Of a DNA stretch of 64,000 nt, positions 39,500-59,803 are shown piece by piece. Below the pieces are notes generated by a model. The model was not told the DNA's origin. It searched no databases and worked only from the letters and a program-made list of their open reading frames with translations. The stretch is from an uncultured Nitrososphaerota archaeon. GTDB taxonomy: Archaea > Thermoproteota > Nitrososphaeria > Nitrososphaerales > Gagatemarchaeaceae. Made by a program: the position numbers and the translations under genes. The stretch covers positions 928,001 to 992,000 of the forward strand of contig CAVRAG010000008.1 of the NCBI GenBank assembly GCA_963718895.1, written 5' to 3'. How positions within the stretch are numbered: the stretch's first letter is position 1; each line of letters opens with the position of its first letter.

Positions 39500-39503
39500 G
39501 CCG

Positions 39504-40810: not shown

Positions 40811-40821
40811 GGGCCGGAAGG
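40811..40821 (-). repeat. att-like copy of tRNA-Ile 3' end (copy 1)
   Basis: GGGCCGGAAGG identical to 59707-59717; intergenic. Confidence 0.6.
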
Positions 40822-41047
40822 AGCCCGGCGACTTCACATCGCTCTGTTCCCGGCCCAGACCTGGGCCTCCCTGACAAGGATTCGTGTCAAGGTAGATTCG
40901 AAGCATTGGCACGGCATGGAGTTGTTATGCTCGTCAATCCTTTCTTACTCTATCAGTTCGACACATCCCCAATGTGCTCACGTTCCGTGCAGCAGCTTGC
41001 ATGTCGTGTCGAATTGAGCGGTGCACGTGACGCTTGCGGAGGCGCGA

Positions 41048-41986
41048 TTAATCCGAGAAAGCGGATTTTTCGATCCTGCTCACTCTCAGGAGTTCCACGA
41101 GCTTCTCAGGGAACATCATGGTCTTGGTAAGTAAGTCGACCCTAGCGCTTGTGACCCCTGGTTGCGACTTCGCCCACTCTAGGTAGCTCTGAACATCTGC
41201 CATCGTGGACGCGCTCACGACGACCCACCCATTGGCAGGGTCAGAGAACAGAACGGAGAGGTAGCTTGCTTCGAAGTGCGAAAGCATCGCCCGGTCCACG
41301 GTTCCCTTCGCCCCGTTCTGGGCGCAGCCGTAGGACAGGTATACAGGGATCAGCCCCGGGATGCCGCCCGCGTCGAGGCTCGCAAGAGCGAAGACCGTGT
41401 TTTCCATCCTCAAACGGCGCACGCTGTTTCTTACGGTCCTCGTTGAGAGGCCGAGTTCCTTTGATAACTTGACGAAGCTCTTGCGAGCATCGTTCGAGAG
41501 CGCGCGGATGATAGATACGTCCGTCTCTGAAATGCGCTCAGTCCTGCACCGTGGGAGGGCCCATCGGACCTGCGTCATCCTCTCGGTGTTCGTGATTCGG
41601 GAGATCAGCTCGATGGTTCGTGAACGCGACTCTTCACCGTTGTACACGACTATGAGCTTGAGTGCTCTCCCGTAGAAATCTATCATCCCTGTGACCTCGT
41701 TGACGAGCTTGAGCTTCCTGATCATGTCTGGCTTCGCGGATTCGGGTTCCACGTCCACCGTCGCGTCCATAACCCTGCAGCCGAAGAAGGTCGGGTTGAC
41801 TATGAGCCGCCACCCCGACATCGCGCCGGACACCTGCAGCCTCTTGTATCTGTAGTTCACCGTCATGTCGTCCGCCCCCAGACGTGCTGCGATGGACCTC
41901 AGGGATGAGCTCACCTGTGTGTCTGATGGAGCCACGGAGCCCTCTGACATGAGGGCCCTGAGGATCTTCACGTCGAGTTCGTCCAC
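41048..41986 (-). CDS. Lrp/AsnC-like regulator with two wHTH modules
   Basis: DELDVKILRAL... and DVSIIRALSNDARKSFVKLSKELGLSTRTV. Confidence 0.8.
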   Translation of the reverse strand: MDELDVKILRALMSEGSVAPSDTQVSSSLRSIAARLGADDMTVNYRYKRLQVSGAMSGWRLIVNPTFFGCRVMDATVDVEPESAKPDMIRKLKLVNEVTGMIDFYGRALKLIVVYNGEESRSRTIELISRITNTERMTQVRWALPRCRTERISETDVSIIRALSNDARKSFVKLSKELGLSTRTVRNSVRRLRMENTVFALASLDAGGIPGLIPVYLSYGCAQNGAKGTVDRAMLSHFEASYLSVLFSDPANGWVVVSASTMADVQSYLEWAKSQPGVTSARVDLLTKTMMFPEKLVELLRVSRIEKSAFSD

Positions 41987-42095
41987 TGGATTCCCCTAGC
42001 AATCAATCTTGCACGCTTCCTATTTATCCATCGCTTCACTTCTGCCCAAATCGTTTAGGCAACGATTCAAATGTCCGCGCCACTTACGTTCTGGC

Positions 42096-42494
42096 ATGGA
42101 TGCGAAAATCACCTCGATTGCGCTGGTCGTAAAGAACAAGGCGGAGGCGCTGGAGTTCTACACCGAGAAGGCGGGCTTCGAGAAGAAGACGGATTACACC
42201 AATGGCGGGTACAGGTATGTTACGGTCGGCCCCAAGGGACAAGATCTGGAACTGGTCCTCTGGCAGGAGGGGTCACCAGAACTGGGCGGCTCGTCCAGCC
42301 AGTTGAAGGCAGGGATGTATCCCCCGATTGTGATGCTCGTCGATGACGTTCGCAAGACCTCGGCCGAGCTGAAGGCCCACGGGGTGCAGTTCAAGCAGGA
42401 GCCGCAGGAGTTCGCCTGGGGGGTATCGGCCACATTCGCAGACCCAGACGGGAACCGCTTCTCAATCAATAGACTCTCCCAGAAGAACCCCTGA
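42096..42494 (+). CDS. VOC/glyoxalase family protein
   Basis: ALEFYTEKAGF ... WGVSATFADPDGN. Confidence 0.9.
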   Translation: MDAKITSIALVVKNKAEALEFYTEKAGFEKKTDYTNGGYRYVTVGPKGQDLELVLWQEGSPELGGSSSQLKAGMYPPIVMLVDDVRKTSAELKAHGVQFKQEPQEFAWGVSATFADPDGNRFSINRLSQKNP

Positions 42495-42536
42495 ACTCGA
42501 AAAAGATATTTAATCTCTGGAGAAGAATAGAATTCC

Positions 42537-43007
42537 ATGGCACCTGCACAGAAGGGCACACAAAAGTCCGCCGGGAGCGCCACCGCGACCAGCAAGAAGT
42601 CCGAGGGTTTCACGGACGAGGAACGAGCCGCGATGAAGGAGCGCGTCCAAGAGATGAAGGCGGACAAGGAAAAAGTAGAGGGGGAAAGCGCCGTACTCGC
42701 GAAAATCGCTGAAATGTCGGAACCGGATCGCACTATGGCCAAGCGACTCCACACTGTCATCAAAGCCAGCGCGCCTGGGCTCACGCCTAGACTCTGGTAC
42801 GGGATGCCCGCGTATTCCAAGGACGGCAACGTCGTCTTCTCCTTCAAACCAGCGGAGAAGTTCAAAATGAGGTATGCGACCTTTGAATTCAGCGACGAGG
42901 CGAACCTCGACGAAGGCTCCATGTGGCCGGTCGCCTTCGCATTGAAGGGGTTGACCGCCGCCGAAGAGGCGAGGATCGTCGCGCTCGTGAAGAAAGCGGT
43001 GAGCTAA
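42537..43007 (+). CDS. DUF1801/YdhG-like protein
   Basis: [31 protein letters not shown]. Confidence 0.8.
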
Positions 43008-43435: not shown

Positions 43436-43549
43436 GGCCTTGGCAGACTGAGAAGGAACGTTCCGAGTTCGAATGGGGTTCGGATCCGTTGACCTCCGAG
43501 AGCGGTTTTCCCCGGTCAGTCAATGATTCGTCGGGCTGAGCAGGAAAGC

Positions 43550-43634
43550 GGGCCGAAAGGGACCTACCCCTTGCAGGGGGTTGAACCTACGTCCAAAGCC
43601 ACGAGGGTTCGAGCCGCAGTCGGTCTCGAACCTT
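43550..43634 (-). repeat. Structured att-like repeat A (tRNA-Ile 3' end plus ~70-nt arm)
   Basis: GGGCCGAAAGGGA + hairpins; ~70/85 identical to 47663-47746 by manual alignment. Confidence 0.85.
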
Positions 43635-43713
43635 CCTATCATGTAGATATCATCAGGTCGTGGATGTTCGCGTCCCACTTTTCGAGACGCGCCATGCACT
43701 CCAGGACATCCTG

Positions 43714-45573
43714 CTACACCAGCAGCAGCCAAGCGGCAAAGATGACTAACGTAGCGATGAAGAGCCCCGCCCAAAGCCGCTTGCTGTGGTCGAAGATGTC
43801 TTTCCCGCTCATTGGAGAAATAGGAAAGGTGTAGAAGAAAGCGCCTATCACGCACATGGACAGGCCAGCTCCGCCAACGGCGGTGTAACCTCCCTTCAAG
43901 AGCAGGAAGAACAGCCCGGCAAAGGCCAGGTAGATGAGAACTCCAGACGCAGAGACTATGGCGCCCAACTTCTCCGTGAACTTCTTGGAGTTCACGTCCC
44001 GCGTAGGCGAAGAGAAAGGAACCTTGAAGACGAAGGTGGTGAAAAGAAAGAGGACGAGCCCCAGGGGCCAGATCACGTGCTCACTCCACACGCCCTTCAT
44101 TCGCAGGTACACTATGGAGAAGAAGCTCTGAACAAATGCAACGACAAAGCTTGTGGCGAGGAAGACCGGGAGCAACGCCCAAATCTGGCTCAGTGTAATG
44201 ACCTTGACGTAGGAGAAGGAAACAGCCAGGACGATTATGGACACGATGTACGCTAGGACTTCAGGTTTGGTGGGCCTGAAGAGAGAACCTTTCTTTTCTT
44301 TTGCATCGAGCTTGCGCTTGGATTCAATTACTTCTTCGAACCATTGTCTTATGTTGTCAGGGATTACGCCCTCGGTCTTGTCGGCGAGCGTTCCACCCAA
44401 GCCACCCAGGGGGTTGCTTATGGCGGCAAAGATCAGCGAAGCTGCTCCCACTATCGCCGCGGATACGCCCACCGCAGCAACCGCATTAGTTGGCGTGGGA
44501 ACCCAGACCTGCTGCACGATGTCTTGCGTAGAAGACGTTGTCGTCTGAACAATGCTTGATGTAGTGGTGGTGGACGCTGATGTAGTTGAACTGGTGGACC
44601 CGGATGCGGTGGATGAATCTGATATGACAGAGACCGTGCCCTCGCCTTCGTTGGCTACGAAGATCTCGCCCCTAGCAGGGTCATAGGCGGCGCCGTAAGG
44701 ATTGATCCCCACGGTTACAGTTGCGACGACGGAGTTGTTGCTGTCGGACATGACCGAGACCGAGGCCGAACCTCTGTTGAGCACGAATATCAGGCCCTTA
44801 GCAGGATCATAGATCGTGCCCCCGGGAGTGGTCCCCACCGTTGTGGTTGCGACGACGGAGTTGTTGCTGTCGGATATGACCGAAACGCTGCCTGAGACGG
44901 AATTGGCCACGAATACCTCGCCCTTGGCGGAATCATAGACTACGCCCAGGGGACCGCTTCCCACAGAGATGGTCGCGACCACCTGATTGCTGCTGTCCGA
45001 TATGACTGAGACAGAGCGGGAGTAGCTGTTGGCCACAAAGATCTCGCCTTTGGACGAATCATAGCCCAGGTCGTATGGACCGCTCCCCACAGGCACAGTT
45101 GCTACGACGGTATTGCTCTTGTCTGAGATGACGGAGACGGTGCCGGCGCCGGAATTGGCCACGAATACCTCGCCCCTAGCGGAATCATAGGCAAAGGATG
45201 AAGGGAAGGTCCCAACGGGCACCGTTGCTACTACTGTGTTGGTCTTGTCCGAGATGACTGAGACGGAGTTGGCACCATAGTTGGCAACGAAGACATCGCC
45301 TTGGCCGGAATCATAGACATCCCTGTATGGCGAGTGCCCCACGGTCACAGTTGCCCGCACGGCATAGCTGCTGTCCGACAGTACCACGACGGTGCCCGCG
45401 CTGGAATTGACCACGAATATTTCGGCCTTGCCGGAATCGTAGGCGACTCCATAGGGAGCGCCTCCAACCTTTATGGTTGAGATTACTCCGACGGCATGGA
45501 CCGCGCCCGCTGCTGACAAAGCAAGAACCACGATGAATGATAGGCCCAAGAGCGTCGAAACTTTGAAGCCCAT
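43714..45573 (-). CDS. YVTN beta-propeller fused to multi-TM site-2-protease-like domain
   Basis: Seven ~42-aa P-x-G-x-x-YDS-x-KGE-x-FVAN repeats, Thr/Ser linker, membrane domain. Confidence 0.8.
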   Translation of the reverse strand: MGFKVSTLLGLSFIVVLALSAAGAVHAVGVISTIKVGGAPYGVAYDSGKAEIFVVNSSAGTVVVLSDSSYAVRATVTVGHSPYRDVYDSGQGDVFVANYGANSVSVISDKTNTVVATVPVGTFPSSFAYDSARGEVFVANSGAGTVSVISDKSNTVVATVPVGSGPYDLGYDSSKGEIFVANSYSRSVSVISDSSNQVVATISVGSGPLGVVYDSAKGEVFVANSVSGSVSVISDSNNSVVATTTVGTTPGGTIYDPAKGLIFVLNRGSASVSVMSDSNNSVVATVTVGINPYGAAYDPARGEIFVANEGEGTVSVISDSSTASGSTSSTTSASTTTTSSIVQTTTSSTQDIVQQVWVPTPTNAVAAVGVSAAIVGAASLIFAAISNPLGGLGGTLADKTEGVIPDNIRQWFEEVIESKRKLDAKEKKGSLFRPTKPEVLAYIVSIIVLAVSFSYVKVITLSQIWALLPVFLATSFVVAFVQSFFSIVYLRMKGVWSEHVIWPLGLVLFLFTTFVFKVPFSSPTRDVNSKKFTEKLGAIVSASGVLIYLAFAGLFFLLLKGGYTAVGGAGLSMCVIGAFFYTFPISPMSGKDIFDHSKRLWAGLFIATLVIFAAWLLLV

Positions 45574-45665
45574 GATCGCTCACCAGCCTCGCTGGCAGGA
45601 TGAGGAAGATCGACTGTGACGCGATGAGTACAGAGGGGCCAACGTATGCGGAGGGAACGCAGAAG

Positions 45666-46868
45666 TCATTCTGTCGTACCGCGCCTTCTGTCCCTCTTCT
45701 GCGCGATGAGCGACAACGAGAGGACCACTCCGACCTGGACGGCCACGAGCACCAGGTAAGAAGCAGGGAGCGACGTGCTGGATGCTTGGCTTGATGTGGC
45801 GCTCTGGGTCGTGGTCGGACTTTGGCTGGTGGCTGTCGCGGAACTAGTCGCGATCGTTGATGCGGAAGAAGAATCTGAAAAGATATCGAGCGCGGCTGGC
45901 GTTGATCCGATGATTTCGCCCTTGCCAGAATCATACACTACCGACCCTAGTGAATTGGGAACTTGTGCGACCACTGCATTGTTGCTATCCGATATCACCG
46001 AGTTACCTACGAATATTTCGCCTTTGGCAGAATCATACGCTATGCCCTGAACTCCTGATAGCCCGGTCACGTTTGCAACCACTGCGTTTGAGCTGTCCGA
46101 GATGACCGAAACACCGTTGTAGCCGTTCGCCGCGAAGATTTCTCCTTTACTGGAATCATAAACTAAGCCAGAGGCGGTGACCCCGTTTATGGTTGCTACT
46201 ACGGTGTTGGTGCTATCAGATATTACTGAGATGCCCGGGCCAGAATTAGCGACGAAGATTTCGCCCTTGCCAGAATCATAAGCCATCTCTCTGGGGAAAA
46301 TTCCCACACCAACAAATGCGGTTACTGTATTGGTGCTATCCGATATGACGTAGACGCCTCCGAAGACATTTTGGCCGTTGCCTGCATCGGCAAGAAATAT
46401 CTCTCCTTTGGCGGAGTCATAAGCTACACCCCAAGGAAGCCACCATGAACCCGATGTCACGTTTGCAACCACTCGGTTTGTACTACCAGATAGAACCCAA
46501 ACCGCGGGAGGGATACCCTGAGCAGTTCCACTGCCTGAGGAGAGGAATATCTCGTGTTGTCCAGAATCGTAAGTCATCTCTGTCAGGAATCCGGGATACC
46601 CGGCTATGGTTACCGTTGCGACCACTTGGTTTGTACCATCAGATACAGCCGAAATGCCAGAGTAGCCTACCACGAATATTTCGCCATTGCTATAATCATA
46701 AGCCATTGCGCCGCTAATCTTGGGTATCGTGGAGGATACTGCCAGTGTTGGAATAGCATGAACACTGCTGATTGCTGAAAACGCAAAGGTCGTGATGAAT
46801 ACCAAGCCTAAGAGTTTCCAAACTCTAACTTTCATAAACACTCTCAACCTTCTGGCACCCATCGCCAA
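45666..46868 (-). CDS. Membrane-anchored YncE/YVTN beta-propeller
   Basis: YDSxKGEIF repeats, S/T linker, C-terminal TM plus basic tail. Confidence 0.8.
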   Translation of the reverse strand: MAMGARRLRVFMKVRVWKLLGLVFITTFAFSAISSVHAIPTLAVSSTIPKISGAMAYDYSNGEIFVVGYSGISAVSDGTNQVVATVTIAGYPGFLTEMTYDSGQHEIFLSSGSGTAQGIPPAVWVLSGSTNRVVANVTSGSWWLPWGVAYDSAKGEIFLADAGNGQNVFGGVYVISDSTNTVTAFVGVGIFPREMAYDSGKGEIFVANSGPGISVISDSTNTVVATINGVTASGLVYDSSKGEIFAANGYNGVSVISDSSNAVVANVTGLSGVQGIAYDSAKGEIFVGNSVISDSNNAVVAQVPNSLGSVVYDSGKGEIIGSTPAALDIFSDSSSASTIATSSATATSQSPTTTQSATSSQASSTSLPASYLVLVAVQVGVVLSLSLIAQKRDRRRGTTE

Positions 46869-47154
46869 GCCGAACTCCTCCCATATAGGACTTTTGCAAT
46901 TCCTACAACATAAGTTGTTGCTTCAGGAGAGTCTTATATCATCTGCCCGTCGAAACGATTGCAAATCAGGTTCTGCGAGTCGTTCTTGAAGCGCCGGGTC
47001 ACAGCCCCGCGAGACCGTCGCGCTTCTCCGGAAGATGAAATGGCCCATGCGTTCTCGGCATCTGCTTCAAGACCTATGAATTCTATGACATATGTTCTTT
47101 TTTAATGCAAAGTTTATAACGCAAAGCCAGTATCGGTTATCAGAGGGATTCGAA

Positions 47155-47361
47155 TTGGCCCAACAAACGACCACTGCGATAAAAGGGAATACGCATGCGA
47201 TGATCCTGGCTGTGTTAGGAGTGATTGCATTTATCGCCGGAGTCGCGGTATCGACCATCCACGGGACCGGTCTGCGTGGCTCGGGCTTGGGAACCCTTCT
47301 CATCGTGGCCGGCGTAGTGCTACTGATCATCTCCTACCTGCGTTTCTCTCGAAAGGTCTAG
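47155..47361 (+). CDS. Small two-TM protein
   Basis: Two hydrophobic helices; TTTATAA upstream. Confidence 0.55.
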   Translation: MAQQTTTAIKGNTHAMILAVLGVIAFIAGVAVSTIHGTGLRGSGLGTLLIVAGVVLLIISYLRFSRKV

Positions 47362-47662
47362 CAGAAGCCCAACCCTAGGAACTTGAAGTCGTTCTCACGA
47401 TCGATCTGGGTTTCAGAGATCATGACGCGCTCAGATTCGGGATTGGCGCACTGGCCAGGGAAGGTGGGTCGACGGGCGGAGTCGCTCGTGCCATCGCCCT
47501 CCTAGTGGTTATCGCGCTTACAGCGTCCGCCACCGTCCCCCTCCTGGTCGCGCCCTCCCCGGCAGGGGCAGCTACTCTATACAGGTCTGACGTGGTAATC
47601 TGATGACGACTTTGAGTCAACCTTCGGAAGCAGAAAAATGCGGCCCGCTGGCAAATGATGGT

Positions 47663-47746
47663 GGGCCGGAAGGGACCTACCCCTTGCAGGGGTGGACCCT
47701 GAGCCCAGAGCTACAAGGGTTCGAGCCGCGACTGGTTTCGAACCTT
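47663..47746 (-). repeat. Structured att-like repeat B
   Basis: GTGGGCCGGAAGGGA (47661-47675) identical to 59705-59719, followed by the same arm as repeat A. Confidence 0.88.
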
Positions 47747-47847
47747 GTTGCCGTAGCATGTTACTGTCGGTCTCGGTTTACTATCCCCACAGTCGGGCCC
47801 TCCTAAATTCACTCACAATAGGTCTGGTCATTTGACCGGGACGAACA

Positions 47848-49187
47848 CTACAGGACCCGGTCGACAAGAGGTATCTTCCTGATAAGATAGGCCAGCCCCC
47901 AGGTCGAGGGCACTATCATCACCGCTGCCAAGCCAAACTTGAGCAGCGACTCTAACTGGACCTGATAGAGCACGAGAGCCGAGAACATGACTATGACGGT
48001 GGCCTGCAGGAAGTACGCGGCGTAGAAGTTCTTCGCGGCAAAGCTCCAGAGTCTTCCCGGGGAGTTGAAGCGCTTGCGGAAGAACGAGATGGCGAACATG
48101 GTCATCCCCACAGCGAAGGTGGAATCCCAGAGCGCGTAGATGGCGGAGGACAACGACCCGTATCCGACCAGGCTGCCCCAGCCAAGCGAGCTCACTTCTG
48201 TGCCGATTATCGCAAGGACAAGCAGCGTCGCGCTCGCGATGAGGGCGATCTCAAAGAAGCGCTTCGCCATGGCGTCGGGCATCTTCCTCAGCCAGTCGCC
48301 GCGGGCGGCCATCGTCCCGACGATGAAGAAGCTCAGATACTGCGGCAGGTCGAAGAGGGAGGGGAAACCGAGCACTTGGGCATCTAGTGGCACCACGATT
48401 CTTAGCGCATAGGCAGCCGCAGCAAGGATCAGGATGAAGGCAGCTATCTTCCGGTATGATGGGAAAGAGCGGGCTTCTTTCGTTGCCCTGTCTCTCACAG
48501 CCACGCGCCAGATGACATAGCCGAACTCGAAGATGAGCAGCAGCTCGACGAACCAGAGAGGCCCGGTGCCCACCGACTGGGTAATGAAGGTCAGGTTCAA
48601 TCCCATGGGGGCAGTAATCCCCTGCTGGACCAGCTGATCAGCAGTCATGTGATAGAACGCTAGGTAGATGGTCAGCGGGTTGATGACGAAGAAGAAGACG
48701 GCGAGCGGGATGAACAGACGAATCAGCCTGTCCTTGATGAACAGCTTGGCACCCTTCCGGTCAAAAGAGCCAGGCGTGAAGTAGGCGGAGAGCAGGAAGA
48801 AGGCGCCGAGGAACCAGGCCTGGTTGAAGTTCGTGAGGAGAGTCAGCACCAGCGAGGCAACCGGGTCGGTTGCAGGCTCCGTGTAGTAGAAGGACCCTGA
48901 CCCTCCGTAGGTGATCGCCGTATGATGGAGGATCACGAGGCTCACCAGCGCCCCCCTGAGGTAGTCTACAAAGTAGATGCGCGTCTTACCGGGTTTGGTC
49001 CCCTTTTCCACCGGCGCCGGGCCCTGCGCGCTCACTTCCAAAGCACCCCAAGCACCACTATCACCGCCCCGACAACGAGCAGCGGGGCGGCGTACGGGTC
49101 TCCGAGACCTCCGATGCCGACGCGGACCACACCGATCAACGCGACTATGGCGCCCACCAGCAGGAGCCTGAGTTTCATGGCTTTCAT
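47848..49187 (-). CDS. Acyltransferase family 3 (OpgC/MdoC-like) membrane protein (frameshift ~49035)
   Basis: RIYFVDYLRG...VILHH, FFLLSAYF, DRLIRL, GPLWF. Confidence 0.85.
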
Positions 49188-49230
49188 GCACTCCACCTCC
49201 CTGGCCGCGGGAAGTATCGGGCCAGCCCGA

Positions 49231-51664: not shown

Positions 51665-52019
51665 GTCGGGACAGGGCGACAGCCGGGTGGGAAAGGAAGA
51701 GGAGGACCTGGTTTCTGACGTGGGATTACCCGGACCGTTTTCGGTCTCGACACGGGTGGGAATAATGACTGCTCTTCTCGGATTCAAGAGGACCACCTTC
51801 ACGGAATTGCTCCTTGCCGTCAAGACTCCGAAGAGCTCGCTCAACAAGAATCTCGGGATCCTGGAAGACTATGGACTCATCAAGCAACGCAAGGCTTTTG
51901 TCCTCGCCCCGGGCCCGAGGACAGTCATCGAGATAACCCCTGAAGGAGAGGAAGCCACCAAGAAGCACCTTGAATTCATGCGCACTCTGGCAGACCGACT
52001 TCTCGGACCGAAGGAATAA
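51654..52019 (+). CDS. Winged-helix (ArsR/MarR-like) regulator
   Basis: RVGIMTAL...TFTEL...SSLNKNLGILEDYGLI...ITPEG. Confidence 0.75.
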   Translation: MPPESGQGDSRVGKEEEDLVSDVGLPGPFSVSTRVGIMTALLGFKRTTFTELLLAVKTPKSSLNKNLGILEDYGLIKQRKAFVLAPGPRTVIEITPEGEEATKKHLEFMRTLADRLLGPKE

Positions 52020-52179
52020 GCGTCTCCTGCGAGGCGTTAGCTGAAGATAAAAGTGATTGGGTCGTAAAGGAGTCCCTGGTCTGTCGCTGATACGACTCCC
52101 TCCCTCTCGCTCCTCTTCGAACGAGCCCAAAATAGCATCAAATCACCACACGCAGTTCATTCTGGGCTAATCTGAATAA

Positions 52180-52191
52180 TGGGCCGGAAGG
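52180..52191 (-). repeat. attR-like copy of tRNA-Ile 3' end
   Basis: TGGGCCGGAAGG identical to 59706-59717; AT-rich flank. Confidence 0.75.
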
Positions 52192-52287
52192 TATGCATTT
52201 AATTAATTAAGCGAATCCTTACAACCGCACCATTCATTTTTCAGAGGTTTCTGATTCATTCGTATCTCCTTGGCGTGTCGCCGTATA

Positions 52288-53830
52288 TTACTCGAAGATC
52301 CCGCTGAAGGAAAGTGTCTGACCATCACTCATCGTAATGACTCCGGCGAAGGAGTCGCCATAGCTTTGGTTCCCGGGTAGACTCGTGATGTAGACAGAGC
52401 AAAACGAATAGCGGTCGAATAGTTTAGCGCATTGATCCATTGACAGGTGAAGAATACGTTGACCCTCCAAATGTAAGGGCGATGGAGGAAATGTTTGGGC
52501 TATACCCTCCGGCATCCCACGGCTCGTAGACGCTTATTACTCCTACCGCATTTGCTGGCGAAACAACAGCTTCCGAGTCTAGGCTTGGACTGCAGCATAC
52601 GAGCGACTAGCTGAGAACCCTGACCCTCTGGGTGGACCAAGTCGGCCATTACACTGACATTGTAACCTTTAGAAGGATAGTTGCTTCCTGGATAGGTATA
52701 GTTGATTCTGAGCAATTGTTGGTCGGGTATGAGAGCTATATGGGTAGATTCCCTTGGCGTCGAGATACAGACTCCCAAGGTAATCACTTACTGGCGCGGC
52801 CAATGTGACCGTGATTCCCTTGGAAGGCCCTAGTCCATCGACTCTCCCCACAATGAACCACTTAGGGGAGGACTGGGCTTCATGCTTATGATGGAGAATG
52901 GAAGCGATGCCTCTAAGCTGGTTATTGTCGCATTGGTCGAAGTGAATTGTGGTGCGAAGTAAAGTTGACTGTCAGGCTGGTTGAAATAATGTCGTGAGAT
53001 GGGACCCAATCATTGTAGCATGGGTTGTAATTGAATTGAGCGCAAAGGCTGAGTGGTTGGATAGCCCGTGAGGCCGGAATCGCATCCCAGACTGAAACCG
53101 CCCCTTGAAGTTCGATGGTGACTCCCGATGGGAGAAAGCAAGGGAACATTGCACACTGATTGGTGACCGTTAGATTATACCCATTCGGCCCTAACGGAGA
53201 AGGGTACAATCCAATCCCGGTCAAGACTATGAATGGGGGTCCCGTATCGTTGTAAATTGAAAGCACCATGACGTCGCCCACTTCAGCTCCTGTAAGCAAG
53301 GAGATTCTTGACGGAAGGCTGACGTTCTGCACGACGAACGAGCTGTAAAGTGAACTGGAGGAAGTCGAGTACGCTTTCCCCACCGTCGAATATAGTGCGT
53401 GTTGAATGGTGCGATCGGATGCTGTTACGTAGACGTCTCGTCCCTCAGGCATCGTAGTGCCTGAGGCGGGGACCTGAAGCACCTGTCTCCCCACAAACGA
53501 AATATTTTGCCATGCGAAATATCCGTACTTCGAATCGCTTGAGGAAATCAGGGCCTGGAACTGAAACAGCGCAGGTCCAGCCGTATGCCCACTGCTAATC
53601 TCTGAGTTGGTGTTGGTAGACGTAAGGGATTGTGTTGTCTGAAACGACGATGAACCAATTGTGGCCGTTGAAGACGAGTTACCTGGTTGTGTTATCGAGG
53701 AAGACGAACTTTTTTGGGGATTTAGTGATGTGGCCAGTCCTATTCCAGCTCCAAGAATTACAAGAAGAACTATTCCGATTATCACTATCCTGCCAATGGC
53801 ATAGCGTCGTCGAGATAGACTGCGACTCAC
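52288..53830 (-). pseudogene. Fragmented secreted/archaeal pilin-leader S/T-rich protein
   Basis: ORF 52922-53830 with RRRYAIG-hydrophobic leader; further same-strand fragments to 52288; low GC. Confidence 0.45.
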
Positions 53831-53999
53831 GTTTTGACTTCTAAATCTCCAAAAATCCCATCGACTTCTTATTCTTTCCGAGTCAGGTAGCTATTGCGTT
53901 TCCTGACCATGCGACAGGTTCCGTTCAACCAATAGCACGCCTCATCCTTATCCAGCTAGCTAGGCACGGCTTAATAGAAACGAACCTGGTCTATCGGGC

Positions 54000-54620
54000 G
54001 TGTCAGAAGATTCGTTACCTCCTGGTTTCACGATAGCACGCCCGAGCATCACTCAAAGGATGCGGGCGTTGCGAACAAACAGGTTCCTGAGAATCGGTGT
54101 CATCCTCGTTCTCGCGGCAAGTTTGGTGCTTCTGACCTATTCCTATGGGGTTCGGTTTCCGACCAGCGCACCAATCGCTGACTGGATCACCGCCACAACG
54201 CTGGTCATCGGGTTAATATTCGGAGAAGATATTCGCACTCGCTTTTTTATCAAACCTGAACTTGGCTAACACTCTCAACCCGAGACCAAAAAACTTCGGG
54301 AAAGACCACTGAAGCAAGCGAGACTCTTACCGATTGGCTCTCGCCACAATTACGAGTTACAACAGGAGTTCTCAGGGTTGTATCGCCTATTTCTCTGCAG
54401 ACGGATTGCGCATGGCGCCTTAGGTGCATATGAACGGCTAAGCTGGCAATTTTCGATAGGCGATCCCGATGTAGAGGAGATAGCAGACAGGACGGACATC
54501 CGAGAAGGAGACAGTAAGGTATTGATGCTGGTTTATTCGAGGAGCGAAGGCGCATCCTATTACTTCGATTCTCAGGAGCATCAAACGGCGGACGACCCGA
54601 AATACAGGTTAGAAACCTGA
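54000..54620 (+). pseudogene. Fragmented membrane-associated hypothetical
   Basis: Two same-strand ORF pieces (54000-54269, 54378-54620). Confidence 0.35.
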
Positions 54621-54878
54621 CAGATGGTATAAGGCAACAATCCTCATCGTGGATAGGAACCGACGAGAGAAGGAATGGAATATCCGAATCCATTCTACTA
54701 AGAAAGGCGAGTTAGGAGTCTATCGTAAAGAAGAGGTCCCCGATGATGAGAAGTAAATATCAATTCCCTTCGACATGAACTCGCTCTTGGATACCCTAAG
54801 GATGGGTGTACCTCCAAAGCAGCTTCTTTTCCCCAAAATAGCTCAATTATTCCCCCTTTCCTAGCCCCCCTCAGGCGA

Positions 54879-55110
54879 GCCCATAGCAAGCAACACCCCC
54901 GCGAATCGAGCTCTTTCGGAGCGAAGATGAGCGGCCCCGCTTCAAGGCGGGGTGAAGGCGAAAGCCGAGCGGAGGGGCAAAGAGGGGGGAGGGAGCCCCG
55001 AAGGGGCGGAAGGCCGTGAGGAGCGAAGCGACGGACACGGCGAGCGAAGCGAGGGGGTGAATTTGCACCGAAGCGAAGGATGAGCCTGAAGGGCGTTGCT
55101 TGCTATGGGC
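54879..55110. other. Hairpin-rich non-coding region bounded by 20-bp inverted repeats (putative single-strand origin/oriT)
   Basis: GCCCATAGCAAGCAACACCC (54879-54898) vs GGGCGTTGCTTGCTATGGGC (55091-55110), 19/20; internal GCGAAGC and GNRA-type hairpins. Confidence 0.6.
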
Positions 55111-56977
55111 GAGCATTCTTTTCGCTAAGGAACTCTGCGAGTGTCGCCACATTGACCCGCGAACTCTTCAGCCTGGCGTATCTGTCGCTCTTCGCGATGT
55201 CAGAGTTCGGGACAAGGACAATGAACGGCTTGATAGCGCTGAGCTTGGAGATGCGTTCCTCAAGGTCGCTCGTCCTCGTCTTGAGCCCCGTCTCTATCTC
55301 GTAGTATGCGCTCTCGGTCTCTACATCGGCGAGGCTCTGCCCCGACTCTGCCACGCTGATGACCTTCTCCTGATTCTCGCTCAGCCTGTCGAGTAGCTGC
55401 CTTACCATGTATCGGTGAAGGCCGCTGACCTTCTCTTCCCCGCTCTTCGCAAAGTACAGGGAGAGGGTCTCTCCCGACTCGGCATCGTCGTACTTCTGCG
55501 CCTGGACTTCTCCGGCGCTGAGAAGCTTCAGGAGAACGTCCCTGACCTTCAGCTTCGCGACATTCTTGTCAATGTGGTAGTTCTCTTCTATTTGGCTGGC
55601 TAGATCGGGAGACCCAGACCACGTCACCATTGTCGAGCCTCTCCCTGACTATCGCGCCGTAGTCTATCGCGGGGTTTTGCGACTGAGCACTAGCAACATC
55701 AGCGGGCGCGCCATACTGCGCCTGGCGGTCTGGAAGCTCGACCCTGTCCGCCCTGAAGATCGGGATTATGCCGCCGTTCCCGACCCGAAAGGTGAGGTCT
55801 ATGAACTGGTGAGGGCGCAGCTCCTTCACTATCCAGACGTAGGCGGAGTCTATCTTGCGTATCGCCTCCAAATCTCTCTCGGACGTGGTGTTGAAGACAA
55901 GCTGAGTCGCAAACTGGTTCCTGAGCGCGTCGGGTATGTCGGAGTAGTTCTGCGTGGCCGTATAGAGGGCGCCGAACTGCCTGATTTGCCGCATCAGGGT
56001 ATCAACAATCGTCCTCGCCTCGGTCTCGTAGAGCTGTGTGAGCCTGTGAACCTCGTCTATCACGATGAGGGTCTTCCTCTTCTCCTGCAATCCGAGCCTG
56101 CTCGTCAGCGAACTCCATATCTGCCTCAGCGCGATCTCGGCGTAGAACGTCTTCGCGCTCTCGTCGAGGTATGAGAAGTCTAGGACTGTGTCTTTGGCGA
56201 GGTCTATGCTGAAGGAACCCTCCCCGACGACCAGACCCCCAATCTGTGCCTCTATCAGCGCGAGCGCTTCCTTCTGTATGTCGGTGGCCTTCCTTCCCGT
56301 GCGCTTGAGGTTGTCCTTGAACTCGCTCCAGTTCTTGCTTTCGCGAGCGACGCTCTTGACTATCGCCCTGACCTGCGAGAAGGTAATACCCCTCACATTG
56401 GCTGGGAAGGCCAAGAGCGTATGCTATCGAGAACGCGTCCGCGTCCTGGAACGGGTCGGGTATGTGTCTTGGAGACGTCTATCACCTGGCATGGCATACG
56501 AAGGTAGGCGTCGTTCGGCTTGAACGAGAAGACGATCTTGGGCTCCTTCGCCGAGAGCAGGAGGACGTTCATCAGCTCGCTCTTGCCCATGCCAGAGCGG
56601 CCGCAGACCATCACGGACGGGTTTCCCTTCCGTCCGATGTATTCCTCAAAGTTCACGTAGCAGTGGTCTATCCGCTTGACGAGAGGTATCTCCCGCTTCC
56701 CGTATCTGACTACCTCGGGACGGCTCCTGCCAGACGCGGATTGCCTGTATTCTACGATGGGCTCCAAGAGGTCGGCGAAGGCAACCTGCCTTATCGGGGT
56801 GCGAGCGAACCTCCTCAGTATGCTCGTTCTCATTATCAGCAGCGCAGCCATGGCAATAGGAATGAGAGCGACTGCGATCAGGACGGGCTTGCGACTGTAG
56901 AGGAGCGGGAAGGCTATCAGGATCAGGAATGCTACGATCTCGTGCTTCGTCTTCTCGGTGAAGGTTGAGACGTTCAT
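55103..56977 (-). CDS. Membrane-anchored HerA/VirB4/TraD-like ATPase with C-terminal nuclease-like domain (about 3 frameshifts)
   Basis: N-terminal TM; GRSGMGKS; IVIDEVH; ATQN; C-terminal LH...ADVE...EIETG. Confidence 0.7.
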
Positions 56978-57165
56978 CTGAATTCCTCCCTGAGTATGGC
57001 AAGCCAGGTCCCTAGCTTCGCTACGAACTCAGTGGCCGAGAGAGTGTCAGGCTCGGCGGCAAGGACTCTTCTGAGGAGGGACTCGCTGTCCAGTGTTGTT
57101 GCGGCCAATTCCTTCAGCTGCCGGATGTCCACCGTGCGCTCGTCCAGCACTAACTTACCTACCAT
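56974..57165 (-). CDS. Small hypothetical protein of integrated element
   Basis: 63 aa, overlaps ATPase start, divergent from HTH gene. Confidence 0.65.
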   Translation of the reverse strand: MVGKLVLDERTVDIRQLKELAATTLDSESLLRRVLAAEPDTLSATEFVAKLGTWLAILREEFR

Positions 57166-57222
57166 ATCGGTAGGAGCCGAAAAACGACAGAATTATAAGC
57201 CTTCCTACTTAGTAGGTATGCG

Positions 57223-57894
57223 ATGAATGCAGTCCCAGTAAAGGTCTCTCTCCTTCAGCTTCTCGAAGTTGAGCCGAAGCGTTACTCCGACGTGGTGAGA
57301 GAGCTGGGAAGGCCGGACAAGACGGTTTACGTGACGCTGGTGGCGCTCGTGGACTCGAAGCTCGTTGCCAAGAACGACGAAGGAAAATATATCCTGACGG
57401 ACGCTGGCAAGCGTGAACTGGAACGAATAAGGTTCGTCAGAATGGCGGAGGAGGAGGACGATATCGAGATTATCTCGAACACGCGGACGGCGATAGCGTT
57501 GGGCAGGTGCTACGATCTCCTGTTTGACATCCGCTATTTATTGTCCCGAACGCCAAAAGCCGAAGGAGAAGACAGACGGGCGGTTGGCGAAAGGATGAAT
57601 GTCATTAGAAACCTTCTGCTGAAGTACAACCCATCACTGAAGAAGGATGAGCTGCTGAAGGAAGAGAAGAAAGGACTTGACATCGGCATTGCAGACCTAG
57701 TAAGCGGCGGGATATGGTGGGGAAAGAGGTTCGTCAAGTGGGGGCTGAAGGATAGGTACATTCACCTCGTGAATCTTACGCGCGAACTCCCTGAGGGCCC
57801 GGTAAAGGACGAAATACTAGCCTCACTTGCGTTGTTTAGAGAGGTGGTCGGGAAGCTGGATAGCAGACTGAAGGAGTTGGCCGCGTATTCTTGA
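57223..57894 (+). CDS. Winged-helix DNA-binding protein
   Basis: PKRYSDVVRELGRPDKTVYVTLVALVDSKLV...YILTDAG. Confidence 0.75.
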   Translation: MNAVPVKVSLLQLLEVEPKRYSDVVRELGRPDKTVYVTLVALVDSKLVAKNDEGKYILTDAGKRELERIRFVRMAEEEDDIEIISNTRTAIALGRCYDLLFDIRYLLSRTPKAEGEDRRAVGERMNVIRNLLLKYNPSLKKDELLKEEKKGLDIGIADLVSGGIWWGKRFVKWGLKDRYIHLVNLTRELPEGPVKDEILASLALFREVVGKLDSRLKELAAYS

Positions 57895-58169
57895 CGCTCT
57901 CGGAGAGAGCCTGGAAGCACATCCGCGAGAGGCATCCCGAACTCTCGAACTACGAAGGATTGATCAGGGACGCGCTCGCCGGGCCCGACATCGTCCTGAA
58001 GGGCGATCAGGAAGAAAGGAAGGCGGTCAAGCTGTTCACGAAGACTCATCTCGGGTCCAAGTACCTCGTTGTTGTCTATCGGGAGGAGAGCGGAAAGAAG
58101 GATATAATAACGGCCTACTTCACTTCAGATTTGAAGAGAGTCAAGGGTGAGCCAATATGGAAAGCCTAG
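57891..58169 (+). CDS. Putative RNase-type toxin (RelE/BrnT/BECR-like)
   Basis: WKHIRERHPEL...KYLVVVY...IITAY; translationally coupled to DUF2283. Confidence 0.65.
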   Translation: MTLSERAWKHIRERHPELSNYEGLIRDALAGPDIVLKGDQEERKAVKLFTKTHLGSKYLVVVYREESGKKDIITAYFTSDLKRVKGEPIWKA

Positions 58170-58354
58170 TCGTGAAGCCTAAGAAACTGGACATAGACTA
58201 CGACGAGAAGAGCGACGTGCTCTATATCTCAGTGGGCAAACCGAAGGAGGCAGACGACTCAATCGAGCCACAAGAGGGCGTTGTGATGAGGACTCGGAAG
58301 GGCGAGCTCGTGGGCATCACGATCGTGGGTCTGAAAGCTCATCTCAGCAGATAG
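58157..58354 (+). CDS. DUF2283-family putative antitoxin
   Basis: IDYDEKSDVLYI...GELVGITI. Confidence 0.85.
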   Translation: MESLVVKPKKLDIDYDEKSDVLYISVGKPKEADDSIEPQEGVVMRTRKGELVGITIVGLKAHLSR

Positions 58355-58365
58355 GTGCGGGCATT

Positions 58366-59654
58366 TCAAAACGGGAGTTTCATTATCGCTTCTCCGTCCG
58401 GCAGCGAAGCCACGTATTCGAAGCCCTGATTGATGTATGACTTGACCTCCTTAACGGGTATGACCTTCTGCCTCGACCCATTGCTGTTCATCATCCCAAC
58501 TAGCCGCTGCCTGACCAGGCTCTGAAGTTCCTCATTCGTCATGTCGTCGAGATTCATCTTCTCAAGCTCTTCTTTCTTGAACCCTGCAACGATGAGGAAC
58601 CGTTCGTTGAACGCCTTACTGATCTGCTTCTCGGTGGCTGACTCTGCCTTTGTGGAGAGGAGAGAGTCGCACTTCTTGTAGGCTTCCCTCATCTCCTCGA
58701 TCATCGAGGGTGGGAGCGTCCTTTGTTCGTCGAATACCTGGCCTCGATGTCCCCTTTGTGCCCCATCAGGAACTGGAGGTAAGGATGTGAGATGAAGCCC
58801 TTCGACTCCGCAACGATCATGCCGGTGTCACAGTAGGCTCTAAGGACGTAGGGTCTCCATGTGAAACCTGCCTTGAGAATCGCTTCCTTCACGTCTCTCG
58901 TCACGAGGGTGGTTCTCAAGAACCGATTCTTCCTGATGCCCCTCGGGTCGAATGCGAGGAGCGCGCTTTCGGCGGTAAGCTTCTCTCCCTGCTTGACCCT
59001 CTCCTGAATGTGCTCTTGGATGTAGGTGATCGCCTCGCCGCTGACGAACGCGAAGTAAGGGTGCCTCGCCTTGCTCAGCGCCCTTCTCACGAGCAGAATC
59101 GTAGGGACCTTCTCGAACTCGATTCCGTCGTCCCTTACCTTTGCCTCGGTGAAGTCTCCCAATCGTATCCCATCCGTCCCGAGGTAGTCGCCGAGGCTCT
59201 CAGGTCTGAGACCGCTGAACGCCATCAGCGCAACCGAAGTTCTTCCTCTGGGTGATGCCATCCTGAGGATTCTCGATAGTTCGTCCTTGCTCGGAATCCT
59301 TTCGCGGGCTATCGTTGGGGTGTCGGAACTTCCCTTGATGTTCACCTTCAGCTTCACGTCGAGGTTGTTGTAGGAAGTCCAAGAGAGGATGACCTTCCTG
59401 AATCGCTCGATGTAGGAGCCCGCCTTCCCGTCCTTCTCCATCCTCCTGACGAAGTCGGTAAATTCGTCCCTGAACTTCTTGGATCGTGCCTCTGCCAGTA
59501 TCTCTCTCGGCGTGGTCTTTGCGAGGTTGGAGTATAGCCCCAGCGTCCTCAGGTAGACCGTCGCAGTGATGACGGACTTGGCTTCGAGGTTCTCATACCA
59601 TCTGCGGACATCCTGATCGTCGAGAAGATGCCTGTATTTGCTCCCAAAGGGCAT
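58366..59654 (-). CDS. int: Tyrosine recombinase/integrase (frameshift ~58710)
   Basis: SGLRPE (R), ALSK (K), PYVLR (YxxR variant), LMGH...RY; starts ~50 bp downstream of tRNA-Ile. Confidence 0.9.
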
Positions 59655-59705
59655 ATTTGGTCACTGGAAGGGCAATTTAATAAAGGATTCTCTTAATAAT
59701 TTAAG

Positions 59706-59803
59706 TGGGCCGGAAGGGATTCGAACCCTCGACCTCTCGATTATCAGTCGAGTGCTCTAGCTAAGCTGCCCGCTCTCTTATCGGAGCTCTGAGCTACCGG
59801 CCC
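59706..59803 (-). tRNA. trnI: tRNA-Ile(GAT) with 23-nt non-canonical D-loop intron (15/16; 59766-59788)
   Basis: GGGCCGG/CCGGCCC acceptor, CTCGA-CTGATAA-TCGAG, GAGGG-TTCGAAT-CCCTT; BHB-like GCTC/GGGC helix. Confidence 0.88.

Follow-up and report, generated by a model that had tools for sequence, protein, structure and literature searches.

A probable accretion island at the 3' end of an archaeal tRNA-Ile gene combines one integrase-bearing element with units lacking an integrase

The window, a 64,000-nucleotide stretch of a contig from an uncultured Nitrososphaerota archaeon, contains five matches to the motif GGGCCGRAAGG against 0.17 expected, and 0 of 100 shuffles gave as many as five. All lie on the plus strand, at 40811, 43550 (the A variant), 47663, 52181 and 59707, with successive copies 2739, 4113, 4518 and 7526 bases apart; the five co-oriented copies and the block sizes of about 2.7, 4.1, 4.5 and 7.5 kb given in a preliminary description of this DNA were thus borne out, and Pfam agreed with the gene contents that it had assigned to the four blocks. 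The features of the region, listed from the tRNA gene outward, are as follows.

59706..59803, minus strand: tRNA-Ile(GAT), interrupted by an intron in the D-loop; the Rfam tRNA model matches 59706-59775
59685..59705, minus strand: tRNA-proximal arm of block 4, CTTAAATTATTAAGAGAATCC in tRNA orientation (same flank in sister genomes G009, G015 and G022)
58701..59654, minus strand: tyrosine recombinase of block 4, N-terminal and catalytic part, 317 aa
58366..58704, minus strand: C-terminal domain of the block 4 integrase in another frame, from ortholog alignment
52194..58365, mixed strands: rest of the block 4 element (orthologs co-ordered in G009, G015 and G022)
57891-58169, plus strand: PBECR-like nuclease (block 4)
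57223-57894, plus strand: wHTH protein (block 4)
56393-56977 and 55569-56414, both minus strand: HerA/FtsK/VirB4-like ATPase split over two ORFs (block 4)
52180..52220, minus strand: outer end of block 4, with the distal arm GGATTCGCTTAATTAATTAAATGCAT and a core that shares 14 of 15 bases with the tRNA
47824..52022, mixed strands: block 3 cargo (Pfam)
51600-52019, plus strand: HTH_34 (block 3)
51020-51664, plus strand: orf214 (block 3)
49965-50888, minus strand: ABC ATPase (block 3)
49231-49968, minus strand: ABC-2 permease (block 3)
47848-49191, minus strand: Acyl_transf_3 (block 3)
47656..47758, minus strand: structured arm with a core of the Ile type that agrees with the tRNA end in 14 of 14 bases, covariance model 107.9 bits
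45666-46868 and 43714-45573, both minus strand: NHL-repeat proteins (Pfam) of block 2, which spans 43647..47655
43543..43646, minus strand: second structured arm with mutated core CCCTTTCGGCCCG, covariance model 105.4 bits
40822..43542, mixed strands: block 1 (Pfam)
42923-43435 and 42537-43007, both plus strand: two DUF1801 proteins (block 1)
42009-42494, plus strand: glyoxalase/VOC protein (block 1)
41048-41986, minus strand: AsnC/Lrp regulator (block 1)
40804..40916, minus strand: core copy farthest from the tRNA (11-mer); the arm model matches here only weakly (12.4 bits; E about 0.016 in 23 kb), probably through decay

The motif copy at 59707 is the reverse complement of the tRNA-Ile(GAT) 3' end (ARAGORN, run without introns, called this gene only as 59705-59775), and the att core corresponds to the last 14-15 bases of the tRNA (59706-59720), displaced fragments of which were found at all four block boundaries. 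Across the 3,127,762 bases of the genome, both strands included, the motif has ten matches: the five of the island, a pair on contig C4 (78401 and 81509) that forms a second small array, and three on C7 that look unrelated; the rarity on which the preliminary description depended therefore holds. The copies are also intergenic as far as tested, since only short ORFs (103-112 aa) cross those at 40811 and 43550, the ORF at 40792-41130 has no Pfam match, and the indels between arm copies are not multiples of three in length. For the 35 ARAGORN tRNAs of the host genome, same-strand repeats of the 3'-terminal 11-mer number 15 downstream (within 40 kb) and 3 upstream, and tRNA-Ile, with three exact copies, tops the set. 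These data support the interpretation of the motif repeats as real recombination scars of the tRNA-Ile 3' end.

The surroundings of this tRNA were compared among relatives. The backbone (orf609, orf366, M48, hydrolase, orf225 and HhH-GPD) is syntenic in five genomes (G007, G002, G010, G003 and G013), while its distance to tRNA-Ile ranges from 4 to 22 kb with unrelated content in between, and synteny is not kept over the block boundaries; 6 of the 17 sister regions fetched break off at a contig end no more than 2.7 kb from the tRNA, and the G001 contig begins at it. The blocks have a G+C content of 0.53-0.57, in all cases below the 0.613 of the backbone. Judged by sequence comparison, the tRNA-Ile 3' end is a hypervariable insertion hotspot among relatives, and the fixed order that would have spoken against the preliminary description was not found.

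Block 4 (52181-59707, 7.5 kb) adjoins the tRNA and has the layout of an Islander-type island, with an intact tRNA, a direct 3' fragment and an integrase between them. Its proximal arm is inverted relative to the distal one, and the arm motif GGATTCNCTTAA was found only at 52207 and 59685, that is, at the two ends of this block. ORFs of unknown kind are also present in the block. The recombinase matched NCBIfam XerA with E 1.8e-5, below the cut-off, and had no match in Pfam, PF00589 itself being silent; among 31 family sequences the residues R150, K195, Y269, R272, H299 and Y307 are invariant, and motif reading would assign to them the catalytic R-K-H-R-H-Y roles, with Y269 replacing the first His. 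An AlphaFold model built from the 31 sequences (pLDDT 81.1) retrieved 42 PDB chains at E <= 0.001 with Foldseek, led by XerA 5hxy, IntI 2a3v, Cre and lambda Int; the best TM-score was 0.59, to the Vibrio integron integrase 2a3v at 15% identity. The protein is accordingly predicted to belong to the tyrosine recombinase superfamily, with the two-domain Xer/Cre/lambda Int fold. Orthologs are encoded by one ORF of 429-437 aa; in the window a frameshift past the catalytic Tyr, which could be an assembly error, cuts off the last 112 aa, so that the gene is not full length. The single integrase of the preliminary description thus stands as the sole recombinase, with its C-terminal domain split off. 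Decay is common in this family: the gene is frameshifted in the window and in G022, reduced to a stub of 91 aa in G017, truncated in the C9 copy and a pseudogene in the one on C5.

Relatives of block 4 directly follow tRNA-Ile in four sister genomes (G009, G015, G017 and G022), with integrases 82-96% identical in three and a decayed fragment in G017; these elements measure 5.8-8.7 kb, and each is flanked by ATCCCTTCCGGCCCA together with the same inverted arms. What follows the tRNA in G021 is nearly the sequence found past the distal repeat of G015, with 17 of 21 bases agreeing when compared by eye, which gives G021 the appearance of an empty site. Within the integrase family as a whole, 43 of 71 loci have a same-strand tRNA whose end lies no more than 300 nt upstream of the integrase. 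As far as comparison of sequences can demonstrate it, block 4 has been mobile; it is probably the newest unit of the array, a cryptic integrated element whose family is active in the genus.

Blocks 1-3 differ from block 4 in holding only cargo genes by Pfam, two to five genes per block on both strands and with their own regulators, block 2 including about 0.8 kb without genes (46869-47655). No recombinase remnant was detected in 38000-52500 with an integrase-family HMM (best E 2.3), tblastn with 11 integrases or PF00589 in six frames, searches that covered the integrase families known from the host genome; decayed integrases, the other finding that would have weakened the preliminary description, were thus absent by these methods. 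Each of the three blocks has a core on both sides and the structured arm on the distal side only, with the cores at 43550 and 40811 mutated. The block 3 cargo recurs with 89.7% identity over 4213 nt in G005 (C39) and 92-93% in G001 (C97), with end points identical in the three genomes and an inverted orientation relative to the tRNA in G005, and block 2 positions 43613-45566 are 89.4% identical to a segment of G010 (C1) downstream of tRNA-Arg; best backbone segments are 83-88% identical, so that the excess for cargo is modest. In sister genomes this cargo lies beside tRNA-Arg and tRNA-Leu without an integrase, in keeping with the self-contained cassettes of the preliminary description. The shared cargo stops short of the att copies, by 72 and 159 nt, and lacks an intact arm (none in G005 and G001, only the first 27-31 nt in G010), which means that the mobile units cannot simply be equated with the blocks between att copies. 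Furthermore, the neighbourhood of tRNA-Ile has homologs of VOC and both DUF1801 proteins in G015 and of VOC and DUF1801b in G022, in other orientations, so that block 1 may be old flank; similarly, the sequence past the 52181 core resembles that following tRNA-Ile in G007 and G014, so that the proximal end of block 3 may be native DNA and not an element end. Further integrase-less bracketed units were found by tblastn at C4:78401-81509, in G010 (tRNA-Arg) and in G005 (tRNA-Leu).

The arm at the boundaries 47663, 43550 and, weakly, 40811 is an element of about 95 nt that ends in the tRNA-like core and is unrelated to the arms of block 4; the array therefore contains two unrelated kinds of att. 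Its covariance model matched 22 of 97 family genomes in seven of ten genera, and the copy at 47656..47758 is 90% identical to one on G013:C85, where the unit of 1.9 kb has only ORFs of at most 116 aa. Two hairpins covary: 85.2% of cells pair compared with 72.3% in shuffles, and 20 of 23 pairs are changed on both sides, counts inflated by an alignment fitted to the model's own structure; the covariation score was 0.342 compared with at most 0.094 when partners were slid, and nil when only the eight close copies were used. The last 12-14 bases match differing tRNAs: about 15 copies are of the Ile type, five are of the Ala(CGC) type, and there are others. A transporter unit of 6.3 kb in G018, integrase-less by tblastn and Pfam, begins at an intact tRNA and is closed by an Ala-type arm with the core that this tRNA has at its 3' end. 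For 15 further arm loci, up to 15 kb of interior-side sequence contained no integrase, while two of the loci had one just past the core. From its conservation and covariation the arm looks functional, and it may serve as a recombination site.

Taken together, the region from about 40.8 to 59.8 kb is probably an accretion island anchored at tRNA-Ile(GAT), composed of the integrase-bearing block 4 and older integrase-less units resembling CIMEs, whose defining lack of integration and transfer genes is seen in blocks 1-3. Tyrosine-recombinase elements would recombine at the final 14-15 bases of this gene (3' strand of the T-stem, 3' strand of the acceptor and discriminator), and each arrival would restore the tRNA and shift older material outward behind a copy of the core. 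The three older units would be bounded distally by the two-hairpin arm and tRNA-like core and would carry only cargo (transporters, acyltransferase, NHL surface-type proteins and regulators), having either lost their integrase modules or come without any. Identity to the last 15 bases of the tRNA falls outward from 14 (52181) and 14 (47663) to 12 (43550) and 11 (40811), and arm scores fall from 107.9 and 105.4 to 12.4 bits; this gradient may be one of age and suggests the order of events. Against the island reading counts the shortness of the cores, at 11-15 bases.

Comparable arrays have been described elsewhere. Streptococcus CIMEs accrete in tandem with ICEs or IMEs at tRNA genes (PMC5704250); as portrayed there, integrase-less att-bearing units likewise line up with an element that has an integrase, in a tandem array at the tRNA 3' end, and the array grows by site-specific integration into an att that includes the gene end, whereas the present island is archaeal, has no conjugation module, shares much shorter att identity (11-15 bases) and has two unrelated arm types. 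Prochlorococcus tycheposon islands, formed by serial integration with partial tRNAs (bioRxiv 10.1101/2020.12.28.424599), similarly abut tRNAs, push older material distally, scatter partial tRNAs and consist mostly of cargo outside intact elements, with transport- or nutrient-type cargo recurring in other islands; they belong to another domain of life and use another integrase family, the passages of that report on tycheposons mention no hairpin arm of about 95 nt, and the drop-off model given there (imprecise, then precise excision) would not alone leave such arms. Block 4 fits the cryptic integrated elements of Thaumarchaeota described in PMC6563490, being small, integrase-bearing, of unknown nature, seated in a tRNA gene and equipped with a very short att (median 17 bp, minimum 8 bp in that source, which also notes arrays at re-used sites); integrase-less att-bracketed units and a structured arm set the array apart from the elements as described there. 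Islander tandems, according to PMC4383910, are likewise marked by a tRNA gene and direct displaced 3' fragments and are rare at three or more members (4 of 3919 islands); since that scheme requires an integrase in every member and only one of four units has one here, it would resolve the array as a single island.

It is unlikely, if far from negligible, that the units of arm and core never had an integrase and were moved in trans by tRNA-targeting tyrosine recombinases from elsewhere in the cell or from incoming elements, which is the proposal of the preliminary description without its integron label. The absence of remnants in 38000-52500 and the repeated end points of the block 3 cargo agree with such movement, and the gaps between this cargo and the cores, just 159 and about 167 nt, leave no room for a 1.3-kb integrase gene; the integrase-less units on C4 and in G010, G005, G018 and G013:C85, the lack of interior-side integrases at the 15 further loci, and an arm preserved at integrase-less units as well as at any other point the same way. 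The armless or partial cargo of G005, G001 and G010, on the other hand, indicates that arm and cargo do not move together, as would be expected of a cassette and its site, the family often shows decayed integrases, the searches were based on families from the host genome only, and no cognate integrase for the arm was identified in that genome. Blocks 1-3 may be mobile today, although no excision product, circle or empty site was seen for them; the only public runs with this DNA are low-share soil-metagenome contigs of 150-460 bases.

Rather improbably, the element of about 95 nt encodes a small structured RNA whose 3' end resembles that of a tRNA, and it lies near tRNA genes and islands for some reason other than DNA recombination; its copies would then account for two or three of the five motif matches. 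Its 5' and 3' limits are sharp amid unrelated DNA, a TATA-like box (TAAATA, AATATA, TATATA, ATATAT or AGTAAA, by eye) lies about 25 nt upstream in five of eight copies, indels fall in hairpin loops, a majority U-G pair can be formed by one strand only, and the element occurs among tRNA genes in G005:C56 and G013:C76. However, it matched no Rfam family even at E up to 1, its T-loop-like part lacks the universal TTCRA loop, and palindromic protein-binding sites would covary likewise; a recombination core directly explains both why the last 12-14 bases track particular tRNA 3' ends and why the array copies are co-oriented with the tRNA.

An integron comprises intI, attI and attC cassettes. The present island shares with it an ordered array beside a tyrosine recombinase and hairpin-forming sites at unit boundaries, and differs in the type of integrase, in how the cassettes are built and in how sites are linked to them. 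An integron or direct equivalent, in which a resident integrase captures single cassettes at an attI-like site under a common promoter, is scarcely credible despite the position of the sole recombinase at the end nearest the tRNA, the newest unit adjoining the anchor, the hairpin-forming site at three boundaries and the leading structural match to 2a3v (found alongside XerA, Cre and lambda Int): the integrase is of a tRNA-linked family, frameshifted here and carried inside a mobile element in five genomes instead of fixed beside an attI, its own arms mark only block 4, cargo is shared without the hairpin site, and the blocks are multi-gene, two-directional and separately regulated instead of single promoterless co-oriented ORFs, so that the integron analogy of the preliminary description was abandoned.

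For the accretion island itself, serial insertion at a tRNA is a known route of island building, and the conserved hairpin element at three boundaries is what is unusual. Speculatively, and we think it unlikely, the two-hairpin arm with its swappable tRNA-matching end may define a family of integrase-less cargo units in soil archaea of the Nitrososphaeria type, units that would integrate at tRNA 3' ends and excise from them in trans, in which the hairpins, as folded DNA or as transcript, would be recognised by the recombination machinery and the last 12-14 bases would set the target tRNA. If so, arm-defined units would be an archaeal counterpart of CIMEs or integron cassettes.

The motif GGGCCGRAAGG was found five times in the window, always on the plus strand (40811, 43550, 47663, 52181 and 59707), relative to a mean of 0.17 copies in shuffled sequences, none of 100 of which contained five; the co-oriented set put forward in the preliminary description was thus recovered in full. 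An exact search on both strands of the 3.13-Mb assembly of the source genome returned ten matches, comprising these five, two on contig C4 (3.1 kb apart) and three on contig C7 that showed no other resemblance. The 59707 copy corresponds, in reverse complement, to the 3' end of tRNA-Ile(GAT), and the other copies, here called cores, keep 14 (52181), 14 (47663), 12 (43550) and 11 (40811) of the last 15 bases of the tRNA, a short identity. Blocks 1 to 4, delimited by these copies from the outermost core towards the tRNA, measure 2739, 4113, 4518 and 7526 bases; the measured spacings and Pfam assignments agree with the block sizes and gene contents described earlier.

Features of the tRNA-Ile region and related loci of the source genome
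59706-59803, minus strand: tRNA-Ile(GAT), with an intron in the D-loop
23708-23806, minus strand: another intron-bearing tRNA (Rfam, 55.8 bits), missed by ARAGORN run without introns
47824-52022: cargo of block 3, encoding an acyltransferase, an ABC-2 exporter, orf214 and HTH_34
58366-58704: C-terminal 112 aa of the block 4 integrase, a separate ORF frameshifted from the rest
Contig C8, 625745-629076 (fetched region L030): minimal tRNA-Asp element of 3.3 kb, with an intact 437-aa integrase paralog and direct repeats of 17 bases that differ at one position

Run without introns, ARAGORN reported tRNA-Ile at 59705-59775 only. Since the tRNA at 23708-23806 was missed in this mode, tRNA calls in the source genome, several of whose tRNAs carry introns, are unreliable unless the tool is intron-aware. 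For the 35 tRNA calls of this genome, repeats of the 3'-terminal tRNA bases on the same strand numbered 15 downstream (within 40 kb) versus 3 upstream, an excess which indicates that tRNA-linked insertion is common in this genome, with tRNA-Ile as the extreme case.

The tRNA-Ile region is most likely an accretion island, in which repeated site-specific recombination at the tRNA 3' end would have stacked four units, the youngest lying next to the tRNA and the boundary sites being more decayed further out. All four units have a lower G+C content than the backbone. To the left of the array, the backbone (orf609, orf366, an M48 peptidase, a hydrolase, orf225 and HhH-GPD) is syntenic in five relatives (G007, G002, G010, G003 and G013), while the distance from backbone to tRNA-Ile ranges from 4 to 22 kb among relatives with differing content, so that fixed synteny across the boundaries is not what the sister loci display. 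The contig ends less than 2.7 kb from the tRNA in 6 of 17 sister regions, and that of G001 begins at the tRNA. Three co-oriented cores lie within 3.5 kb in G027, and longer decayed tRNA-Ile 3' fragments (~32-35 bases) were found in G022 and at the C4 locus. Between the outermost core and the HhH-GPD backbone gene, a DUF1697 gene and a CMD-like gene (39504-40770) have a lowered G+C content (0.58) and no counterpart in the sister loci fetched; they may represent a still older unit with a lost boundary. The sequence after the 52181 core resembles that following tRNA-Ile in G007 and G014, and a similar trailer motif (...AGCYCAGAAT...) is present behind many cores of various types; when tested as a trailer of tRNAs in general, it was seen after 1 of the 35 tRNA calls in the source genome. 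The motif may be either native flank or an element arm, and its nature decides whether the inner end of block 3 is an element end.

Block 4 is a genuine integrative element. Its ORF at 58701-59654 had no Pfam match and a weak match to XerA, and a full-length ortholog matched a PHROG integrase weakly; a PDB sequence search gave a chance-level match only. The ORF is identified as a tyrosine recombinase by residues invariant among 31 relatives (R150, K195, Y269, R272, H299 and Y307) and by an AlphaFold model (pLDDT 81) whose structural matches are XerA, the Vibrio integron integrase, Cre, XerH and lambda Int. Relatives are widespread in archaeal MAGs (80 stretches kept of 154 confirmed), with a same-strand tRNA end within 300 nt before the integrase gene in 43 of the 71 loci with enough upstream sequence; paralogs in the source genome sit after tRNA-Asp and tRNA-Pro. 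Orthologous elements follow tRNA-Ile in G009, G015, G017 and G022, three of which share the gene order and an integrase 82-96% identical, and G017 retains only a decayed integrase fragment. Each ortholog ends distally in GGATTC.CTTAA....TGCAT followed by ATCCCTTCCGGCCCA, and the tRNA-proximal flank of such elements is the inverted counterpart of this distal arm; the arm motif occurs in the window at 52207 and 59685 only. The post-tRNA sequence of G021 nearly matches, at 17 of 21 bases by eye, the sequence of G015 that lies past the distal repeat, as would be expected of an empty site. The window integrase is interrupted by a frameshift just after the catalytic tyrosine, and its orthologs are single ORFs of 429-437 aa.

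Other features of block 4 and its family were also observed. The C-terminal domain (112 aa) shares 41-50% identity with the C-termini of three canonical PF00589 integrases of the source genome. The HerA/FtsK/VirB4-like ATPase (55569-56977) is split into two overlapping ORFs with the Walker A part set apart, which may reflect a second frameshift or an assembly error. A wHTH protein followed by a 92-aa protein with a PBECR-like (barnase/EndoU/RelE-type) nuclease domain (57223-58169) could form a toxin-antitoxin-like or defence pair. Shortly after a tRNA-Arg gene of G010:C1 (fetched region L119, ~8085-8115) comes a perfect 10-bp palindrome, GGATTCGCTT-GGAGTATT-AAGCGAATCC, whose half-site is the same as in the arms of the block 4 element family.

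Cargo resembling that of blocks 2 and 3 was found at other tRNA genes. The block 3 cargo is 89.7% identical over 4.2 kb to a segment of G005:C39 and 92-93% identical to one of G001:C97, where the ABC genes are missing and the end points are the same. In G005 this cargo lies 364 nt after tRNA-Leu(GAG), inverted relative to the tRNA, with a hairpin, a decayed tRNA-Leu 3' fragment and a trailer beyond its far end, and tblastn with 11 integrases over the 20 kb fetched detected no integrase gene. Similarly, 43613-45566, which comprises the gene of a 619-aa NHL protein with its 3' flank, shares 89.4% identity with a segment of G010:C1 located 1.4 kb after a tRNA-Arg gene and followed by an imperfect copy of the end of this tRNA. 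Backbone identity between the same genomes is 69-88%, so that the cargo equals or exceeds the most similar backbone segments, at other locations. Gene capture in archaeal chromosomes is reportedly the title subject of an article by She et al. in 2001. In G018, a 6.3-kb unit encoding an ABC-2 exporter and an Nramp transporter runs from an intact tRNA, whose 3' end has the same core, to an Ala-type copy of the arm described below; Pfam detected no recombinase in it. The source genome also contains a second small array (C4 78401-81509; L001 8397-11520), with a decayed 32-base tRNA-Ile 3' fragment at one end, an interior of 3.1 kb comprising a gene for an NHL protein and a gene-free stretch of 1.3 kb, and then an arm and core beside a CLC channel gene; no integrase was detected by tblastn in the 20 kb fetched. 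The two NHL proteins of the window (44648-46706) contain 126-nt (42-aa) tandem repeats in 6-13 copies of 60-82% identity, and the family is greatly expanded in the genus, with matches in 22 of 23 genomes and up to 22 per genome.

The copies at 43550, 47663 and C4:78401 form part of a two-hairpin element of ~95 nt, the arm, which ends exactly at ...TCCCTTCCGGCCCA and is also present in G013, G005 and G027. A covariance model built from eight copies matched 22 of 97 family genomes in 7 of 10 genera. Over 32 aligned matches, pairing was kept in 85% of cells relative to 72% in shuffles, 20 of 23 pairs were changed on both sides, and the covariation score was 0.342 versus at most 0.094 with partners slid; as the alignment had been fitted to the structure of the model, the pairing figures are flattered. 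The long first hairpin keeps its pairing despite quite different sequence in a second subfamily. RNAalifold on eight close copies, on both strands, gave no covariation (a positive covariation term, with one compensatory pair), a result that carried no information before the model search was widened. The last 12-14 bases vary by subfamily and match different tRNAs (Ile-type in ~15 copies, tRNA-Ala(CGC) in 5, with other types besides); the three bases preceding the core vary along with it, and pair 131-150 is GC in 22 and AU in 5. With filters off, a weak full-length match (12.4 bits) at 40804-40916 places the arm at three of the four non-tRNA cores, with preservation falling outward.

The 47663 arm and that of G013 are 90% identical, compared with 74% for the adjacent SDR gene, and the flanking DNA is unrelated on either side; G010:C1 keeps only the first 27-31 nt of the arm. 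Judged from these sequence comparisons, the arm is a unit on its own, and the cargo appears to move without taking the arm along. The arm may act either as DNA or as a transcript; a TATA-like box lies ~25 nt upstream in 5 of 8 copies (by eye). Work on IS110 bridge RNAs is related literature. Rfam gave no match to the arm in a gathering scan of the window or at E <= 1 over 40000-60500 and the C4 locus, the scans returning only tRNAs and one chance match. Other readings of the arm were rejected: by eye, it was judged not to be an acceptor minihelix, a permuted tRNA or the 3' half of a split tRNA, since its loop is not a T-loop and the putative 5' partner lacks covariation between Ile and Ala types; segmental duplication is contradicted by the adjoining NHL proteins at C4 and in the window, which are not close paralogs; and a coding sequence (ATG ACA AGA ...) is ruled out by 1- and 2-base indels between copies.

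The preliminary description had placed the only recombinase in the tRNA-proximal block, and this held, with the qualification that the block 4 integrase is frameshifted. In blocks 1-3, no integrase or decayed remnant was detected by tblastn with the block 4 integrase against the genome, by PF00589 in six frames (five genome matches, none in the window), by an integrase-family HMM on all six-frame pieces of 38000-52500 (best E 2.3), or by searching the window with 11 integrases of the source genome and relatives. Either these blocks never had an integrase or they lost integrases once present. The former reading is favoured by the compactness of the units, by cargo end points that are identical in three genomes, and by units at three different tRNAs, none of which has an integrase by tblastn; 15 further arm loci also lacked an integrase on their inner side, of which up to 15 kb was fetched. 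Loss is favoured by the frequent decay of this integrase and by the order arm-core-integrase in two genomes, as two of the 15 loci have an integrase just beyond the core. At two other loci, G013:C174 and G005:C56, an integrase with its own tRNA fragment adjoins the 5' end of the arm.

Of the earlier proposal of serial, integron-like capture at a tRNA att site, serial insertion and integrase-less cargo units stand, capture in trans stays a hypothesis, and the label does not hold: the array is not an integron, because the resident integrase is part of a mobile element and lacks its arms at the other boundaries, the units contain several genes and regulators of their own, and the cargo moves without the hairpin site. 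The same stacking pattern is described for bacterial CIME/ICE accretion (PMC5704250), CIMEs being integrase-less cis-mobilizable elements that keep att sites, and for Prochlorococcus islands (bioRxiv 10.1101/2020.12.28.424599). Arrays and short att sites have been reported in Thaumarchaeota (PMC6563490); among the papers listed for archaeal cis-mobilizable elements, none concerned archaea by title.

Among the public runs listed, five DNA runs from two studies of soil/peat metagenomes, and no RNA run, contained parts of the window, at low shares (0.06-0.18). Four of these DNA runs yielded contigs of 150-460 bases over the window, which bear on excision neither way; a joint from 43006 to 47688 was discounted, with 27 letters on its shorter side and a position off the cores. 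One soil-metagenome contig (run X4) lacks 192 bases between tRNA-Ile and the SDR gene, with 59804 joined directly to 59997, and represents a strain variant upstream of the tRNA.

As accretion in tandem at tRNA genes is familiar from bacteria and has been noted in archaea, the array itself is no surprise; it is an unusually clean four-step example from an uncultured soil archaeal lineage, showing transporters, surface-type NHL proteins and regulators entering and moving between tRNA-linked islands. In sister genomes, the same 4-kb cargo lies between repeats of different tRNAs, in each case without an integrase by tblastn, which poses the question of how cargo passes from one att frame to another. 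By their design, island finders that rely on integrases overlook such integrase-less units. The conserved, covarying arm of ~95 nt, which is present in about a fifth of the family genomes and whose end follows the target tRNA, merits most follow-up; should a trans-acting system use it as recognition site, the arm would provide a handle for finding non-autonomous mobile units in archaea.
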